From the sequence record OP079919.1: a DNA stretch of 64,000 nt, one strand, 5' to 3'. Within the stretch, counting starts at the first letter, position 1; each line of letters opens with the position of its first letter. The stretch comes from Klebsiella phage KPN8. The translations under genes were made by a program, and so were the position numbers. This document shows, piece by piece, positions 36,115-42,253 of the stretch. The notes under the pieces were generated by a model. That model made no database searches, was not told the origin of the DNA, and saw nothing but the letters and a program-made list of their open reading frames with translations.

Positions 36115-36912
36115 ATGACAGACCAATGTGAGTGGAAAGACGTTTATGTGACTGGCTGCAATCATGTAAACGATAAGATCATGTTAAAATATCGCCCTCA
36201 GTTTCGTACGATGGAAGAACATGATAACGAAACCTGGGGCCTTCTCGACCAAGTGCCAGAAGATAAAATCGTTATCTTCTTAGGTGACAACTTCCTCAGT
36301 CCAGAAAGTCTAATAAGACTAAAACAGTATAAGTTTTACAAAGTCCACGTACTCGGTAACCACGATCTCCAAAACGGGGTGAATATAAAAATGATTACCG
36401 ACGTGATGGATGAAGTCCATGGTAGCATTAAAATGGACGGGATATGGTTCTCGCACATCCCGATGCATAAACACGCTTTAGGACATGGTTATATTAACAT
36501 CCACGCTCACATGCACACCGACACGTTATACGACGATCGTTACGTTAACGTAAGTATGGATGCGACCAATTATCGTTTAATCTCTGTCGATGAAATACTG
36601 AACGGCAAGTACGTTCCTTTTTCCTTCCTCCCTAAAGGAAAAACAGAATCCTTAGATTTAACTGTCCCGATAAACGTTACTCGGTTTATTCTCGACGAAG
36701 AGATCTTTGATCAGGAAGGTAACTTAGTCGCAGAAATTAAATCAGTTGACGCCAGCCGCCCAATGAAGATAGACGTGAATATAAAAATGTTGCTCAGTGA
36801 GTTTAAAGCACATTTTAAATCACCTACCCAGTTCAAATTCGTCGCAGGTAGGGGCCAGGTTCACTCTAAAATTGTTTTCAACAAAATATCAACTCAGGAG
36901 TTACCATCGTGA
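36115..36912 (+). CDS. calcineurin-like metallophosphoesterase, paralog 2 (with about 90-aa C-terminal extension)
   Basis: GDNF...GNHD...HIPMH...HAHMH; parallel to 21460 protein. Confidence 0.7.
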   Translation: MTDQCEWKDVYVTGCNHVNDKIMLKYRPQFRTMEEHDNETWGLLDQVPEDKIVIFLGDNFLSPESLIRLKQYKFYKVHVLGNHDLQNGVNIKMITDVMDEVHGSIKMDGIWFSHIPMHKHALGHGYINIHAHMHTDTLYDDRYVNVSMDATNYRLISVDEILNGKYVPFSFLPKGKTESLDLTVPINVTRFILDEEIFDQEGNLVAEIKSVDASRPMKIDVNIKMLLSEFKAHFKSPTQFKFVAGRGQVHSKIVFNKISTQELPS

Positions 36913-37265: not shown

Positions 37266-37636
37266 TGGACGAAAATAACGTAATAGGTCAGACTTACGAA
37301 AGTATTATGTCAGATCGTTTCAAGATGTACGAGTTTAGAACCAAATTGGGTTATGCTCGGTATAACGACCTTTCAGCTAAAATATTTTTTACTATTAAGA
37401 AGATAAGGGCGTTAAAAAAAGAAATCAAAAAATGTCAACGATTAGGCGCCGAGTTGGGTATTTCGGGTAAAACGGTTTATCGGTTAGGGACTCGCAGTTT
37501 TATTGCCGAGCTTAACATGGAACTTGCGTCCCTGCGAATGCTAATCGGTAAAAGAAAAGAAAAAATGGAAGAGTTAAGAAGATTAATTGGCGAGCGCAAC
37601 GACGCTTACAATAAACTTAATAACCTGGAGAAATAA
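37262..37636 (+). CDS. coiled-coil protein (124 aa)
   Basis: ATGA overlap; K/E/R/L-rich heptads. Confidence 0.55.
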   Translation: MMDENNVIGQTYESIMSDRFKMYEFRTKLGYARYNDLSAKIFFTIKKIRALKKEIKKCQRLGAELGISGKTVYRLGTRSFIAELNMELASLRMLIGKRKEKMEELRRLIGERNDAYNKLNNLEK

Positions 37637-37637
37637 A

Positions 37638-38231
37638 ATGGCAAATATTGAATTAATAAAGCAAACCAACGAAGAAGCTTTCAATGACCCACACCCTGGC
37701 GATCTCTGGCACGAGATGTTTAACGAGCAACTCCGGGTTATTAAGGTTAATGACGACGGGTCCTTATTTATCAGATACTCCCCATCTGGAATAAACCAGA
37801 TCTTGAAGATTAATCGCTCGCAGTTCGCCCTTATGTTAAAGTACAAGCATAATGATAATTTTTGTCTTGACGTGATAAGGGGCAAGAGTGTTTTCGATCT
37901 CCCAAGAAAGATCAGTAACGGTTTATTCGTTAAATTTGAAGACAGCGGTTTAAGCTGCCGGGTGGTGGAAGTCTTTAAAGACGTTTACGTTGTTGCAGAC
38001 GCTAGCGCGCTGACTAACCTTTGCCTGGAAGTTGGGATGAAGAAGCCGTTAGTTCCCGATAATTTGCGTTATCCTTTAATTGTTCATCTTGGCGGGGTAG
38101 GTCAAGCCGATGAGTTACTAAAAGAAACCTCTCTAGCAAAAATTAATCGCATCTTTGACTCGGTCAATTACAATAACTCGGTCAAAACGATTTACAGCTA
38201 TAATCACTGGTTGCTGTTCCGTAATTTTTAA
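37638..38231 (+). CDS. hypothetical protein (197 aa; trimmed from 37587)
   Basis: GGAGAAATAAA-ATG immediately after upstream stop. Confidence 0.6.
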   Translation: MANIELIKQTNEEAFNDPHPGDLWHEMFNEQLRVIKVNDDGSLFIRYSPSGINQILKINRSQFALMLKYKHNDNFCLDVIRGKSVFDLPRKISNGLFVKFEDSGLSCRVVEVFKDVYVVADASALTNLCLEVGMKKPLVPDNLRYPLIVHLGGVGQADELLKETSLAKINRIFDSVNYNNSVKTIYSYNHWLLFRNF

Positions 38232-38240
38232 GGATTCGAT

Positions 38241-38678
38241 ATGAGTTTACGTGCTTTGTATTGCGGTGGTGTTGTTAAAAATGGAATAGTGGCTTGGGGG
38301 AACCATATCCCAGTTACTCATCGAGAAACTTTCCTTCAATTTAAATTTCAACTCAAAGGATGTAAATCGGCTGGGTTCTTAGGGGACGAAGAAGGGTATT
38401 TGAAAATTTATGGTAAGAGTATTAGTCTCGGTATCGAGGCTAATGATTTTACTAATAAACGAATCAGGGCGGGTCAAGACAACTACCGGTTCTTCCGTTG
38501 CATGGTGACCGTAGGTAACTACGAATTCCCGTTATTATTTTGCGGAACTTACGAACCTGAGTTCTTTGAGTTACGTAAGGAAATCACCAGAGACGAGCTT
38601 GGCGATGCGTTAAGTCAGCTCGAACAACTGGGTTGCAATTATGTCAGCAACGATCGCAGAACCGTTAACTGGCTTTAG
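38241..38678 (+). CDS. hypothetical protein (145 aa)
   Basis: TAAGGATTCGAT-ATG. Confidence 0.6.
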   Translation: MSLRALYCGGVVKNGIVAWGNHIPVTHRETFLQFKFQLKGCKSAGFLGDEEGYLKIYGKSISLGIEANDFTNKRIRAGQDNYRFFRCMVTVGNYEFPLLFCGTYEPEFFELRKEITRDELGDALSQLEQLGCNYVSNDRRTVNWL

Positions 38679-38687
38679 GAAAATGAA

Positions 38688-39911
38688 ATGTTCGAATATC
38701 TCATTCAGATAAATCAGGTTCTCTCTTCTGTCCCTATTATCGGTGGGAGTTTAGCGGTAGCCTTAGGCGGCGGGATCATTGCCGCCTTCTGGAAAGGTCC
38801 AGCGTTACTCTCGAGGATTTTTAACTCCACTGTTGTGGTTTCCTTCACTCTTAATAACTCAGGGTGGGGCAATAATACCAAGCACTACATTGCGTTTATT
38901 AAATGGTTTAACCGTTCAGATATTCTTAAGATAACGCGATCTACTGGTTACGAGGCCGTTTACGACAGCTCTGGTAAAGGGCCTAGTGTCGGCAGTCATT
39001 TATTTCGATTTAAGAATAAATGGTACTATCTCAAAATCAAAGAACTCCCTTCTACGGGAAGCGAGCGTGAGAAGAAAGAGATATGTATAAAGACGTTAGG
39101 GTGTTCTGTCAGCATTTTCGACGATCTCTTCGAGGCCTTTAAGGATAAGACGGATGACGACGGAGAACTCAAAGTAAAACGGTTCAGGGACAATTACTGG
39201 TACGACGCCTGTCTTCTCAGCAGAAGGTCGTGGGATACCGTCATCTTAAACAAAGAAAAGAAGGTGGAAATAGTCGAACTCATCGAAGAGTTTTACGCGT
39301 CGAGGGAGTGGTACCGAGAAAGAGGAATACCGTATAAACTCGTTATTGTTTTGTACGGCCCGGCCGGGACGGGTAAGAGTACTGTTATCAAAGCGTTAGC
39401 ACGCTTGTTTAACAAAAACCTTAACCTCATTTATCTTCACCAAATGACGGATAACACCTTCCCGGCCAGCATAGAGACGGTAGAGCAAGATTCTTTTATT
39501 GCCATAGAGGATTTTGATACGGTTTCTTCTATAGGGTCGAGGACCAAACCTAAGGAGGAAAAAGATCCGTTCCAAATAGACCTTTCAGACGGAGGATTAA
39601 ACCTGACCACTGTTTTAAATACATTGGATGGGATCGCCGAATTGAATGGTCAGGTCATCTTTATGTCAACCAACCATCTTGAAAAGATCGACAGTGCGCT
39701 GATCAGAACGGGTAGGGTGGATGCAAAAATCCACATCGGGTTTTTAGGTAAAGAAGAGGTCGGAGACTTTATTCAAATGATGTATCCCGGAACAGAAACT
39801 GATTTGGATTTTGTTACAGAAATCTCTGGGTCGGATCTTCAGTCGTATGCGTTAGCCAACAAAAGAAATTCGGAAGGTTTCTTAAAAGAGCTTAAGGACC
39901 ATTTTAAATAA
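38688..39911 (+). CDS. Bcs1-like AAA+ ATPase with N-terminal transmembrane segment
   Basis: TM PIIGGSLAVALGGGIIAAFW; Walker A YGPAGTGKST; IEDFD Walker B; LNTLDG...IFMSTNHLEKIDSALIRTGRVDAKIHIG matches BCS1 second region of homology. Confidence 0.8.
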   Translation: MFEYLIQINQVLSSVPIIGGSLAVALGGGIIAAFWKGPALLSRIFNSTVVVSFTLNNSGWGNNTKHYIAFIKWFNRSDILKITRSTGYEAVYDSSGKGPSVGSHLFRFKNKWYYLKIKELPSTGSEREKKEICIKTLGCSVSIFDDLFEAFKDKTDDDGELKVKRFRDNYWYDACLLSRRSWDTVILNKEKKVEIVELIEEFYASREWYRERGIPYKLVIVLYGPAGTGKSTVIKALARLFNKNLNLIYLHQMTDNTFPASIETVEQDSFIAIEDFDTVSSIGSRTKPKEEKDPFQIDLSDGGLNLTTVLNTLDGIAELNGQVIFMSTNHLEKIDSALIRTGRVDAKIHIGFLGKEEVGDFIQMMYPGTETDLDFVTEISGSDLQSYALANKRNSEGFLKELKDHFK

Positions 39912-39935
39912 CCTTTTATTTTAGGACAAACATCG

Positions 39936-40490
39936 ATGATTTTACAAGCAGTTAGCGTCGGTGGTAAGAAAACCACCATAGAAATAGAAGAAGGGCTTGT
40001 TAATGTTTGGCTGTTAGCTAAGCACGACGTCTTCTTACAAAACTTACCTCCTCTGGTTTGTCATGCATTGATTAAAGAGCATATCGAACGCAATATTACC
40101 CGTCGACCTGACATTCCTTTAACAGCCCAAGTACGCGAGCTGATGTACCGCGATATTACCATTAAGCTCAACGGTAAACCAAACTCGGTCATTCCCGTAA
40201 TTAAAGTAAGGCCGAGTAAAACCAGAAACCAGCTGAACCGAATCGTCAAAGAGTACTTCACGGTAAACAGCATGGAGTTCGATAAGAAACTCACTGTTGG
40301 TGAAATGCGTAAATTGGAGAAATACCTCCTTTCCTTTTACAAAGAACCCGTGCAGATTCACAAGAAAGAATTCCCTAATGGGGTTTATAAACTCATCGGC
40401 GTGGAATACGAAAATGAGCGGTTTGAAATAACCTTCTCTGACGATTTCTTCTTCGCTTTATATAAGGGCCCAGAATACCATGTTCAATAA
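39936..40490 (+). CDS. hypothetical protein (184 aa)
   Basis: TTATTTTAGGACAAACATCG-ATG. Confidence 0.65.
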   Translation: MILQAVSVGGKKTTIEIEEGLVNVWLLAKHDVFLQNLPPLVCHALIKEHIERNITRRPDIPLTAQVRELMYRDITIKLNGKPNSVIPVIKVRPSKTRNQLNRIVKEYFTVNSMEFDKKLTVGEMRKLEKYLLSFYKEPVQIHKKEFPNGVYKLIGVEYENERFEITFSDDFFFALYKGPEYHVQ

Positions 40491-40899
40491 TGTCATTTTA
40501 TTTGTCTATGACGATAGTGAGCTCGCTACCCAGTACACCGTGGCTAATAAAGGTGGAACAAGAAGATTAACAACCCCAGGTCACAGTGTTCTCTTATCTG
40601 ACGTCAAAGATAGAGTGGGGAAAAGCAGTTTCCATAACAGCATTGTGGTATTTGTACGAGGAGGGGCTTTCTTTGTTTTCATGTGCGGGTCCGTTCTATA
40701 CGGATTGGTGGGTGATCTCGATCACCTTCTGGATCACTTGTTGAAGATCAGGGACGAACTCAATACTCGGGCAGACATACGCAATCGGACAATACTGCAT
40801 ATCTCCGAGGCAGGATTCGGGCGGTACGACATCATTCCGACCATCGATCCCGTCGCGCACAAGGCATTGGCTGATTACCAAAATAATAAATTATTCTAA
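40480..40899 (+). CDS. hypothetical protein (139 aa)
   Basis: ORF; strong terminator follows. Confidence 0.55.
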   Translation: MFNNVILFVYDDSELATQYTVANKGGTRRLTTPGHSVLLSDVKDRVGKSSFHNSIVVFVRGGAFFVFMCGSVLYGLVGDLDHLLDHLLKIRDELNTRADIRNRTILHISEAGFGRYDIIPTIDPVAHKALADYQNNKLF

Positions 40900-40902
40900 C
40901 AG

Positions 40903-40948
40903 TTACTGGAGTGGGGATGACCCCACTCCAGTAAGTTATTTTTTTTTT
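40903..40948 (+). terminator. strong intrinsic terminator (TTACTGGAGTGGGG-atga-CCCCACTCCAGTAA + T10)
   Basis: 14-bp perfect stem, T-run. Confidence 0.85.
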
Positions 40949-40964
40949 CATATTATTTTAAAAC

Positions 40965-40972
40965 TATATTAC
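40965..40972 (+). promoter_or_regulatory. TATATTAC box, candidate phage promoter
   Basis: exact 8-mer 43 nt upstream of ATG 41016, directly after terminator. Confidence 0.35.
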
Positions 40973-41015
40973 CTAAACGTATAGACAACTTCTTTTATTT
41001 AACTGGAGTAGTAAA

Positions 41016-41264
41016 ATGATTTATTTCGATTTAGATTTTTTACTCGGGTCTAAGATCACGAAAGAAGAATTTAAGGAACTATTTCCGGATGCGGATCCCG
41101 ACCACCTATCCTGTTCTTCTACCGAGGAGGAAATCGATTTCGAAAATGCTTTTTGTGCGGAAGATCCTTATGATTCGGAAATCCTTCACCGATCTGTACC
41201 CATAATCGAAGGATCAAAATCAGATTTAATTTCGTCATACAAATTAGCGGAGGATGAGATATGA
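41016..41264 (+). CDS. small acidic protein (82 aa)
   Basis: GGAGTAGTAAA-ATG; ATGA coupling to NTase. Confidence 0.55.
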   Translation: MIYFDLDFLLGSKITKEEFKELFPDADPDHLSCSSTEEEIDFENAFCAEDPYDSEILHRSVPIIEGSKSDLISSYKLAEDEI

Positions 41265-42253
41265 TTATTGCTTTAAAAACGTTTGTTGGTAGTAAACTGT
41301 TTGGATTAGAAACAGAGAATTCGGATACGGATATAAAGGGAATTTATATTCCTTCTGCTAAGGATATTCTTCTGCATCGTTATCACCCTGTGATCGATAA
41401 ATCTTTTAATAAGGGGACTTATCGAGCCAACAAGCCGGAAGATACAGATGAAGTCTATTTCTCTTTGGACAAGTTTATCGAGCTTCTCATAAAAGCCGAT
41501 ACAACGGCTTTCGATATGCTGCACGCACCAGAAAGTAAAATCCTCATCTCCACTGACATTCATCACGAGCTTTGGAGAAACCGGTCCAAGTTTTATACTA
41601 GCCGATTGGATGGTCTGTTCGGCCAGGTTATTACCGAAGCGAATACTTACGGTGTTCGGAGTATGCGAGCTGCCGTTTTAAAAGAGGTCGTTGAAATCGT
41701 TTCTTCGTGGGATGATTTTAAATTGTCGGGATGCAGATTGGGCGGACTGATTTCTCAGCTCCCAGTCGATAACGTGTACACGCGTATAACGCGGGATGAG
41801 ACACAGAGGGCTGGCTGTCAGGATTTCTATGAAATTCTAGATCGTAAATTTCAGTACACCATCTCGGCTTTGAAATTCAAAACTGCTATTCTGGAATTAT
41901 GGTCTTCCTACGGAGAAAGGGTTAAGAAGGTGGAGTTATCTGGGGGTAATGATTGGAAGGCGTTAAGTCATGCTTTCAGAATCGGATATCAGCTGTTAGA
42001 TATCTACCGAGAAGGCGATTACACTTTTCCTTTAAAGCAAAGCTCTACGATTATGAAAATTAAACTCGGGGAGGTTTCAGAAGAAGAATCAAGAGAAATG
42101 CTGAATCAACTCATTTCCGATGTTAAAACTGCAGCAGGTAAATCCGGACTTCCCACTGAGGTTGACCCAGAACCCTGGTACGATTGGGTCGCGGACGTTT
42201 ACGCTGGAGTAGTTAAGAAAGCTTACTTACCTAAGGGGTTTAGATTGTCATGA
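41261..42253 (+). CDS. Pol-beta superfamily nucleotidyltransferase (PF10127-like)
   Basis: GS-x9-DTD motif (VGSKLFGLETENSDTDIKGIYIP) plus downstream AFDMLH acidic; 330 aa. Confidence 0.6.
   Translation: MIIALKTFVGSKLFGLETENSDTDIKGIYIPSAKDILLHRYHPVIDKSFNKGTYRANKPEDTDEVYFSLDKFIELLIKADTTAFDMLHAPESKILISTDIHHELWRNRSKFYTSRLDGLFGQVITEANTYGVRSMRAAVLKEVVEIVSSWDDFKLSGCRLGGLISQLPVDNVYTRITRDETQRAGCQDFYEILDRKFQYTISALKFKTAILELWSSYGERVKKVELSGGNDWKALSHAFRIGYQLLDIYREGDYTFPLKQSSTIMKIKLGEVSEEESREMLNQLISDVKTAAGKSGLPTEVDPEPWYDWVADVYAGVVKKAYLPKGFRLS

Follow-up and report, generated by a model that had tools for sequence, protein, structure and literature searches.

Mitochondrial Bcs1/BCS1L (yeast 6SH3, mouse 6UKO) is a heptamer of the AAA type that translocates the Rieske Fe-S protein in its folded form. 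Very few known machines use ATP to carry a folded protein through a membrane, and this one has been studied in mitochondria only. Orthologues of BCS1 have been described in all three major jumbo-phage groups, where a role was proposed in membrane-proximal assembly or in translocation of folded proteins which become packaged inside the head (Iyer et al. 2021, PMC7824862). In GenBank, the gene of Klebsiella phage Miami (CPT_Miami_182) is already annotated as 'chaperone protein, InterPro:IPR027243' (BCS1), and its homologue in Salmonella phage Munch as 'mitochondrial chaperone'. Here we describe a gene of this kind in a 64,000-nucleotide stretch of DNA from Klebsiella phage KPN8 (OP079919.1; hereafter the window), whose product resembles Bcs1 from its membrane anchor to its AAA domain (Table 1). 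We assign a probability of about 0.5 to the combined reading that this protein, with the architecture of the Bcs1 family, works at the inner membrane of the host as a ring-forming chaperone or translocase driven by ATP, in an accessory role. Given the Miami annotation and the work of Iyer et al., a Bcs1-like ATPase in a phage was already known, and the observation is less novel than an earlier, sequence-only reading of the window had implied.

The protein very probably belongs to the Bcs1 family of AAA+ ATPases. In a phmmer search of the PDB its best matches were mouse Bcs1 (E=4e-31) and yeast Bcs1 (E=3e-29, with an alignment that covers residues 19-383), the next clade being VAT/Afg2 at E=1e-19; the AAA-only Bcs1 chain 6U1Y was likewise preferred (E=8e-30 versus 1e-19 for VAT), and Foldseek aligned the 6U1Y chains to the AlphaFold2 model of the protein with a target-normalised TM-score of 0.85. 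With the same model as the query, the top 17 Foldseek matches were all Bcs1 chains (E=9e-29 to 9e-19), with alignments of ~375-428 columns to the full-length ones, followed by YjoB of Bacillus subtilis (3e-16) and proteasome Rpt subunits (~1e-12). The AAA domain thus sides with Bcs1 and not with FtsH-, ClpX- or Cdc48-type proteins, as the sequence-only reading had expected.

The N-terminal part of the protein was compared separately. A single-sequence phmmer search of the PDB with residues 1-185 found nothing significant (best E=0.034, a cell-wall hydrolase that we judged a chance match), and a 25-sequence profile of the same residues, run against the whole PDB, matched Bcs1 only (yeast E=2.5e-16, mouse 4.8e-10), the next match standing at 0.09 and the alignment taking in the transmembrane segment. 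Recognition by the Pfam model BCS1_N (PF08740), which had been proposed as a check, was accordingly seen in part: the single sequence scored 27.8 bits, just under the gathering score of 28.1, while the profile of this region pointed to Bcs1 alone. The stretch LNTLDG...STNH..IDSALIRTGRVD, which had been singled out as specific to Bcs1, is present at residues ~309-345; it consists for the most part of the second region of homology that classical AAA proteins have in common, so the Bcs1 affiliation is not established by that stretch alone. Diagnostic evidence for Bcs1 comes from the N-terminal domain, from the Walker B of ED type and from the database ranking.

The hydrophobic segment near the N-terminus, earlier taken for a membrane anchor, is indeed predicted to be a transmembrane helix. 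Its 19-residue Kyte-Doolittle mean reaches 1.94 at residues 15-33, K36 and R42 follow on the C-terminal side, to which the lysines and arginines of its flanks are confined, and the AlphaFold2 model (mean pLDDT, the predicted local distance difference test, 83.3) shows a long transmembrane helix at residues 16-49. This positive-inside bias is family-wide, with on average 0.88 lysines plus arginines before the helix and 2.86 after it, and more on the C-terminal than on the N-terminal side in 111 of 118 members. The topology predicted from these flanks would be the bacterial equivalent of the orientation of mitochondrial Bcs1. After the helix, the secondary structure of the model runs through six strands and two helices, then strands 162-167 and 170-176, and then the AAA fold; DSSP, read for the order of the strands, places the latter two before the five core strands, and this order agrees with the published description of the Bcs1 domains.

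A single Pfam match bears out the claim of one AAA domain, and no protease domain was found in the ATPase by the Pfam search. The residues of the ATPase machinery are all present (K230, E274/D275, N329, R340 and R343), and among 136 family representatives G224, K230, E274, N329, R340 and R343 are invariant or near-invariant; judged by its residues, the AAA domain is catalytically intact. The aromatic-hydrophobic-Gly motif of pore loop 1 was not found, the region after strand beta-2 reading LHQMTDNTFPASIE, and Bcs1 is likewise without this motif. The length-variable site of the family lies after residue ~288-297, between the Walker B strand and the LNxLDG helix, where it should face the cavity; insertions of at least 8 residues occur there in 64 of the 136 representatives, the one in phiKZ gp286 (PHIKZ286), the phiKZ orthologue, being 98 residues long.

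From its homology to Bcs1, we propose the following mechanism. The single N-terminal helix is predicted to leave ~14 residues in the periplasm and the remainder in the cytoplasm, and copies of the protein would form a ring, probably heptameric, at the inner membrane of the host, on its cytoplasmic side. A cavity bounded by the AAA and middle domains would be able to take a folded or largely folded protein; with the binding of ATP this cavity would collapse and drive its cargo into the membrane or through it, the direction from cytoplasm to periplasm being the topological equivalent of that from matrix to intermembrane space. The cargo may be set by a polar 'seal' loop specific to the family together with the hypervariable, cavity-facing loop after Walker B. 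The translocase function of the ATPase is the tentative part of this proposal, with odds that we place below even.

Several observations weigh against such a mechanism, or against its close correspondence to the mitochondrial one. According to the published structure description, the seal loop of mouse Bcs1 (M121, M123, V124) closes the central diaphragm, and yeast Bcs1 is described as gripping the Rieske protein Rip1 via EWR and DDR motifs. The hydrophobic seal loop is not conserved in the ATPase, which has the polar L-P-S-T-G-S-E-R-E-K (residues 120-129, aligned as KELPS--TGSE) at this position; as the seal residues give way to a shorter polar loop, gating may work differently from that of mouse Bcs1. 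The phage family has a moderately conserved seal-loop version of its own, with the consensus L-x-S-[ST]-G-[ST]-E-x-E-K (S122 in 61%, G124 in 74% and K129 in 69% of members). At the positions of EWR and DDR the ATPase reads YWY and DNT. W171 is kept in 131 of the 136 members and D255, the first D of DDR, in 98, while the E and R of EWR and the second D and R of DDR are not conserved across the 136; eukaryote-type rows of the same alignment do show both motifs. Because neither these motifs nor the hydrophobic seal are conserved, the protein, as judged from its residues, is of the Bcs1 family and yet not a Rieske translocase, and its cargo, if any, would be a different one.

The sole experimental data on an orthologue also weigh against the proposed mechanism, as they put phiKZ gp286 with 70S ribosomes rather than a membrane complex: in cells infected with phiKZ, PHIKZ286 and 70S ribosomes fractionated together, and the protein was cross-linked to RplL, RplK and RplJ (Fossati et al. 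2023, PMC10449902). Furthermore, no conserved neighbour nominates a cargo in the loci compared. In an all-against-all BLASTP of the flanking open reading frames (ORFs) of seven loci (the window, PA7, phiKZ, RSF1, phiTE, Munch and Noxifer), the window had nothing but the ATPase in common with the others, and tblastn of three ORFs flanking the gene in the window matched six Miamivirus records only; as the flanking ORFs are restricted to Miamivirus, the ATPase has no conserved partner. The bacterial loci showed no neighbour conserved across genera (this output was noisy from shadow ORFs in high-GC DNA), and two metagenomic contigs of intermediate distance had only unannotated small ORFs around the gene. 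A 175-residue protein (PHIKZ282 and Noxifer gp232, 48% identity) is encoded just upstream of the Bcs1-like gene in phiKZ/PA7 and in Noxifer; neither the window nor the remaining phages compared were found to have it close to the gene.

The accessory part of the combined reading rests on the close relatives of the window, among which the gene occupies a polymorphic slot. This polymorphism is the addition of the present analysis to prior knowledge. The same two flanking genes are found in all relatives, with four different states between them. The first, shared by the window, Miami and Stenotrophomonas phage BUCTxx100 (OR529409.1), is the 407-residue Bcs1-like gene. In the second, seen in Raoultella phage VB_ZK_P1 (PV662128.1, 186818-189139), the ORF is 773 residues long and carries an in-frame insertion of ~366 residues exactly at Walker A, between K230 and S231 (window 39377/39378; GPAGTGK/AQPLH...FIVTHN/TTVIK). 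The first residue of this insertion is Ala and its last two are HN, with Thr next in line. By its matches to LAGLIDADG_3 (E=6e-12) and to the intein-type family Hom_end (E=1.3e-5) it is an intein; with W in block B, C in block F and T ahead of HN, it is possibly one of class 3. The third state is that of phiKp_32 (LC768500.1, 172391-173458), where a different, soluble AAA protein of 355 residues (phrog_14322) takes the place of the ATPase.

In the fourth state, that of Klebsiella phage YC1 (OR493421.1), the slot is empty: positions 38677 and 39907 of the window map to one base, 189846, in a phage otherwise collinear with the window (52,966 nucleotides aligned at 87-97.5% identity). No homologue of the ATPase was found in the whole YC1 genome, in which the hidden Markov model of the family gave nothing at E<=1 and the best tblastn match had E=0.06; neither AAA type, Bcs1-like or that of phiKp_32, has a homologue in this complete genome. 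The gene is therefore dispensable for an isolated and propagated Miamivirus, which argues against a core role in assembly, and PHIKZ286 is not in the chimallivirus core-gene table. We conclude that in Miamivirus the ATPase is an accessory function, dispensable for laboratory propagation, and not part of core replication or assembly.

Beyond Miamivirus the family is large. The ATPase belongs to PHROG 7485 (E=5e-108), and tblastn found 162 phage records, 125 of them with at least 80% query coverage. The carriers include phiKZ-like and other Pseudomonas jumbo phages, Ralstonia phage RSF1, Noxifer and the Salmonella phages Munch and 7t3 (350 kb), and Pectobacterium phage phiTE (142 kb) also has a homologue; an exhaustive search returned 588 clusters (at 50% identity) at E<=1e-30, mostly full length. 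In the literature on gp286/PHIKZ286 and on Bcs1 in phages or jumbo phages we found only the two papers cited above, and supplements on PHIKZ286 report detection of the protein and nothing further.

Homologues also occur in bacteria. Isolates of the Rhodospirillales (Paramagnetospirillum, Azospirillum, Oleispirillum) encode proteins of 410-457 residues, most with an N-terminal hydrophobic segment, the ORF of Magnetospirillum sulfuroxidans being shorter (349 residues); Paramagnetospirillum caucaseum, Oleispirillum naphthae, Azospirillum spp. and Phaeospirillum are among the carriers. The scan that revealed them covered species genomes of bacteria and archaea; it also turned up homologues on contigs of metagenome-assembled genomes, which are possibly phage. 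A rough neighbour-joining tree places the ATPase in a phage cluster inside the Bcs1-like set, apart from a cluster of eukaryote and Rhodospirillales sequences; its deep nodes are without bootstrap support, and we therefore draw no conclusion on the branching order of phages and eukaryotes. The Rhodospirillales homologues may bear on the origin of mitochondrial Bcs1. In BFVD, many giant viruses (Klosneuvirinae, Medusavirus, Clandestinovirus, Pandoravirus) have several Bcs1-like AAA models each.

Of the other explanations, the one that survives best concerns biological role and is compatible with a Bcs1-type mechanism; it is improbable all the same. It holds that the gene is a conflict-system cassette (anti-defence, superinfection exclusion or host range), kept only where a particular host factor needs countering. 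The slot suits this explanation, being present, absent, swapped or intein-invaded among phages whose flanks are ~88-97% identical in nucleotide sequence, and a 139-residue ORF downstream is also fast-evolving. Hot spots of such presence, absence and swapping typically house accessory conflict genes. On the other hand, the family is widespread and, in phiKZ-like phages, conserved vertically; a conflict gene that cycles rapidly would not usually behave in this way. The PADLOC matches lie in the P-loop region only, within residues ~180-245 (best IetA, E=2e-8, residues 181-245; TRIP13, 5e-8). As there was no full-length match, a reading as a defence ATPase was dropped.

Two further explanations seem to us still less probable, and to much the same degree. 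The first was put forward in the only paper that discusses phage BCS1 (Iyer et al. 2021) and is compatible with the architecture: a membrane-proximal chaperone of virion assembly, whose ring would bind folded head or portal proteins and help to load the prohead. It is difficult to reconcile with a viable, fully sequenced YC1 without any copy, with the soluble AAA protein that phiKp_32 has instead, and with the absence of the gene from the core-gene table. The genomic setting speaks against it as well, as in Miami, phiTE, Noxifer, Munch and RSF1 the gene has for company genes of nucleotide metabolism, of replication or of early type and does not lie in structural modules; it is found near a primase/helicase gene and a Lar-like gene in phiTE, near a DNA ligase gene in Noxifer and near PhuZ in RSF1.

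The second is that the protein is a ribosome-associated factor, which docks on the L7/L12 stalk and modulates or localises translation during infection. The fractionation and cross-links of PHIKZ286, an orthologue of the gene in the window, are in line with this explanation, and the neighbouring PHIKZ285 likewise scored as a ribosome interactor. However, these results come from one high-throughput data set, L7/L12 is very abundant, and a ring from the membrane, with a mass of several hundred kDa, could by its size elute together with 70S ribosomes; PHIKZ285, moreover, has no homologue beside the gene in other phages. The protein has no sequence likeness to a stalk-binding GTPase or known ribosome factor, and its conserved transmembrane anchor and Bcs1 cavity architecture would be left unexplained. 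The least probable alternative is a generic membrane AAA unfoldase or extractase (FtsH/Msp1-like, with no protease) that threads host membrane proteins through a narrow hexameric pore: the membrane anchor, the classical-clade AAA domain and weaker matches to Cdc48, Rpt and FtsH models agree with it, but in closeness to the AAA domain Bcs1 is ahead of every unfoldase by ~11 orders of magnitude, the aromatic pore-loop-1 motif is missing, no protease or substrate-recognition domain is present besides the Bcs1 middle domain, and the NCBIfam FtsH and proteasome models fall far under their cut-offs, for which reason an FtsH or proteasome reading was dropped.

The phage origin of the DNA is borne out by 97.5% nucleotide identity over positions 37500-41000 to Klebsiella phage Miami, a 253-kb Miamivirus and jumbo phage; the same region is also matched by five further records of Miami's phage group. 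The ORF of the ATPase is 99.5% identical to that of Miami, the nearest relative for this gene, whereas the next ORF is 100% identical to that of YC1 and the ORF after that 99.3% to that of phiKp_32. From this mosaic of closest isolates across 38241-40899, the window appears to come from a distinct, recombinant Miamivirus, a mosaic of isolates already described. BUCTxx100, with Stenotrophomonas maltophilia as its recorded host, has ~97% nucleotide identity to Miami here, and its host assignment is odd given such similarity to a Klebsiella phage. YC1 encodes a PhuZ-like tubulin homologue (113414-113890, in a coding sequence at 113090-114052; E=9e-11 to RSF1 PhuZ), which fits a place of the phage group among the nucleus-forming chimalliviruses, and its terminase genes carry an intein-containing annotation. 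A link of the ATPase to the phage nucleus or to the early-infection vesicle was considered, since Miamivirus is chimallivirus-like; it is not favoured, because the family also occurs in phiTE, a member of the Vequintavirinae, and in the unclassified Munch, and because the phiKZ gene does not figure in the core-gene table.

The gene is one of a run of ORFs that the sequence-only reading had described as a block of unknowns closed by a very strong terminator. The terminator is as strong as claimed, with a free energy (dG) of -27.5 kcal/mol (z=-7.0) that 0 of 200 shuffles matched. As to the block itself, the ORFs that flank the ATPase within 38241-40899 have no match in Pfam, PHROG, NCBIfam or PADLOC, so that they stand as unknowns; they do not form a conserved set of partners, and by its distribution the block is a lineage-specific gene run rather than a functional module. 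The 139-residue ORF has 49.6% identity in BUCTxx100, and VB_ZK_P1 matches its first half only; it has a hydrophobic stretch at residues 55-73 (19-residue Kyte-Doolittle mean 2.12). Outside the block lie genes for a phosphoesterase (phrog_547, 36115-36912, + strand) and for an RlaP-type nucleotidyltransferase (PF10127, phrog_388, 41261-42253, + strand), which are of RNA-repair or nucleotide-metabolism type and not structural.

Table 1. Coordinates in the window of the ATPase gene, its predicted parts and neighbouring features
Feature	Coordinates	Strand	Remarks
AGGA ribosome-binding site	38677..38680	+	8-11 nt 5' of ATG; overlaps TAG stop of preceding ORF
AAA+ ATPase, very probably of the Bcs1 family, complete ORF	38688..39911	+	ATG start, 407 aa + stop
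Single transmembrane helix, predicted, N-out/C-in	38730..38792	+	residues 15-35 (VPIIGGSLAVALGGGIIAAFW)
Bcs1-specific (seal-forming) middle domain and two extra beta-strands	38835..39215	+	residues ~50-176
AAA core, Pfam PF00004	39345..39740	+	residues 220-351; E=1.2e-11; helical lid runs on to the C-terminus
Walker A GPAGTGKS	39357..39380	+	residues 224-231
Walker B FIAIEDFD	39495..39518	+	residues 270-277; ED-type, cf. LLEDVD in Bcs1
Charged low-confidence loop at the pore-loop-2 position	39534..39602	+	residues 283-305; main length-variable site of the family
Sensor-1 (N329); second region of homology, Arg fingers R340, R343	39669..39722	+	residues 328-345; N329, R340 and R343 invariant in the 136 representatives
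Presence/absence cassette, ATPase ORF only	38678..39906	.	1229 nt; missing in YC1, replaced in phiKp_32
145-aa ORF preceding the ATPase	38241..38678	+	Miamivirus-restricted; kept where the ATPase is absent
184-aa ORF following the ATPase	39936..40490	+	Miamivirus-restricted
139-aa ORF just before the terminator	40480..40899	+	fast-evolving among Miamivirus isolates
Intrinsic terminator	40903..40948	+	14-bp G+C-rich stem, 4-nt loop, U10 tail; also placed at 40903-40934

Both the literature and GenBank annotation already contain the phage family, so that the window brings no object of a new kind, and what is added here is modest: a Rieske cargo is ruled out on the motif evidence, no operon partner was found, and the gene is dispensable in a swap-prone slot. 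The deletion in YC1, the replacement in phiKp_32 and the P-loop intein of VB_ZK_P1 amount to ready-made isogenic-like material, which we regard as the most useful new lead. A phage counterpart, expressible in Klebsiella, Pseudomonas or Escherichia coli, would be a tractable model for the mechanism of Bcs1, and if its cargo came to light, a new route of protein export would be defined for infected bacteria. More speculatively, and we think this unlikely, phage rings of the Bcs1 type may provide an ATP-driven route, independent of Sec and Tat, by which a folded protein of phage or host enters or crosses the bacterial inner membrane, with the polar seal loop and the hypervariable cavity loop selecting the cargo, and which serves as a host-dependent accessory weapon; if true, the phage radiation and the Rhodospirillales homologues would bear on where mitochondrial Bcs1 arose.

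Compared with the systems already described, the ATPase stands closest to mitochondrial Bcs1/BCS1L, its best match in sequence and fold over the full length. The two share a transmembrane anchor, a Bcs1-specific middle domain and a single AAA domain in the same order and, as predicted here, topology, together with an ED-type Walker B, paired Arg fingers and the lack of a canonical pore-loop-1 aromatic. The ATPase differs in being phage-encoded and only ~23-28% identical, in its polar seal loop (LPSTGSEREK, 2 residues shorter, against the hydrophobic DMQMVDL) and in having the Rieske-binding EWR/DDR reduced to W171 and D255. Its orthologues in jumbo or large phages (phiKZ gp286, phiTE_021, Munch gp468, RSF1 ORF017 and Noxifer gp231), all in the same PHROG, are 31-36% identical over ~90% of the length; their neighbouring genes differ in every lineage, and the phiKZ-like proteins, unlike that of the window, have their long insertion after residue 288.

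The AAA protein of phiKp_32 (BEH89815.1) occupies the identical genomic slot in a sister phage, and its core, too, has Bcs1 as the nearest match (E=4e-9) and carries a Walker B of ED type (VFVEDAD); it differs from the ATPase in having no transmembrane helix (maximum Kyte-Doolittle value 1.02) and an unrelated N-terminal domain, the 27% identity between the two being limited to the AAA core. The next fold match (~420 columns) is YjoB (7W42), a soluble AAA+ protein and putative substrate-specific chaperone, which unlike the ATPase has no membrane anchor and is a much weaker match in sequence (E=1e-12, 17-18% identity). Finally, the bacterial Tat pathway is a functional analogue and not a homologue, as it transports proteins in the folded state out of the cytoplasm into the periplasm. 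In mitochondria that lost Tat, this Tat-type job is done for the Rieske protein by Bcs1, although the proteins are unrelated and Tat is driven by the proton-motive force and not by ATP.

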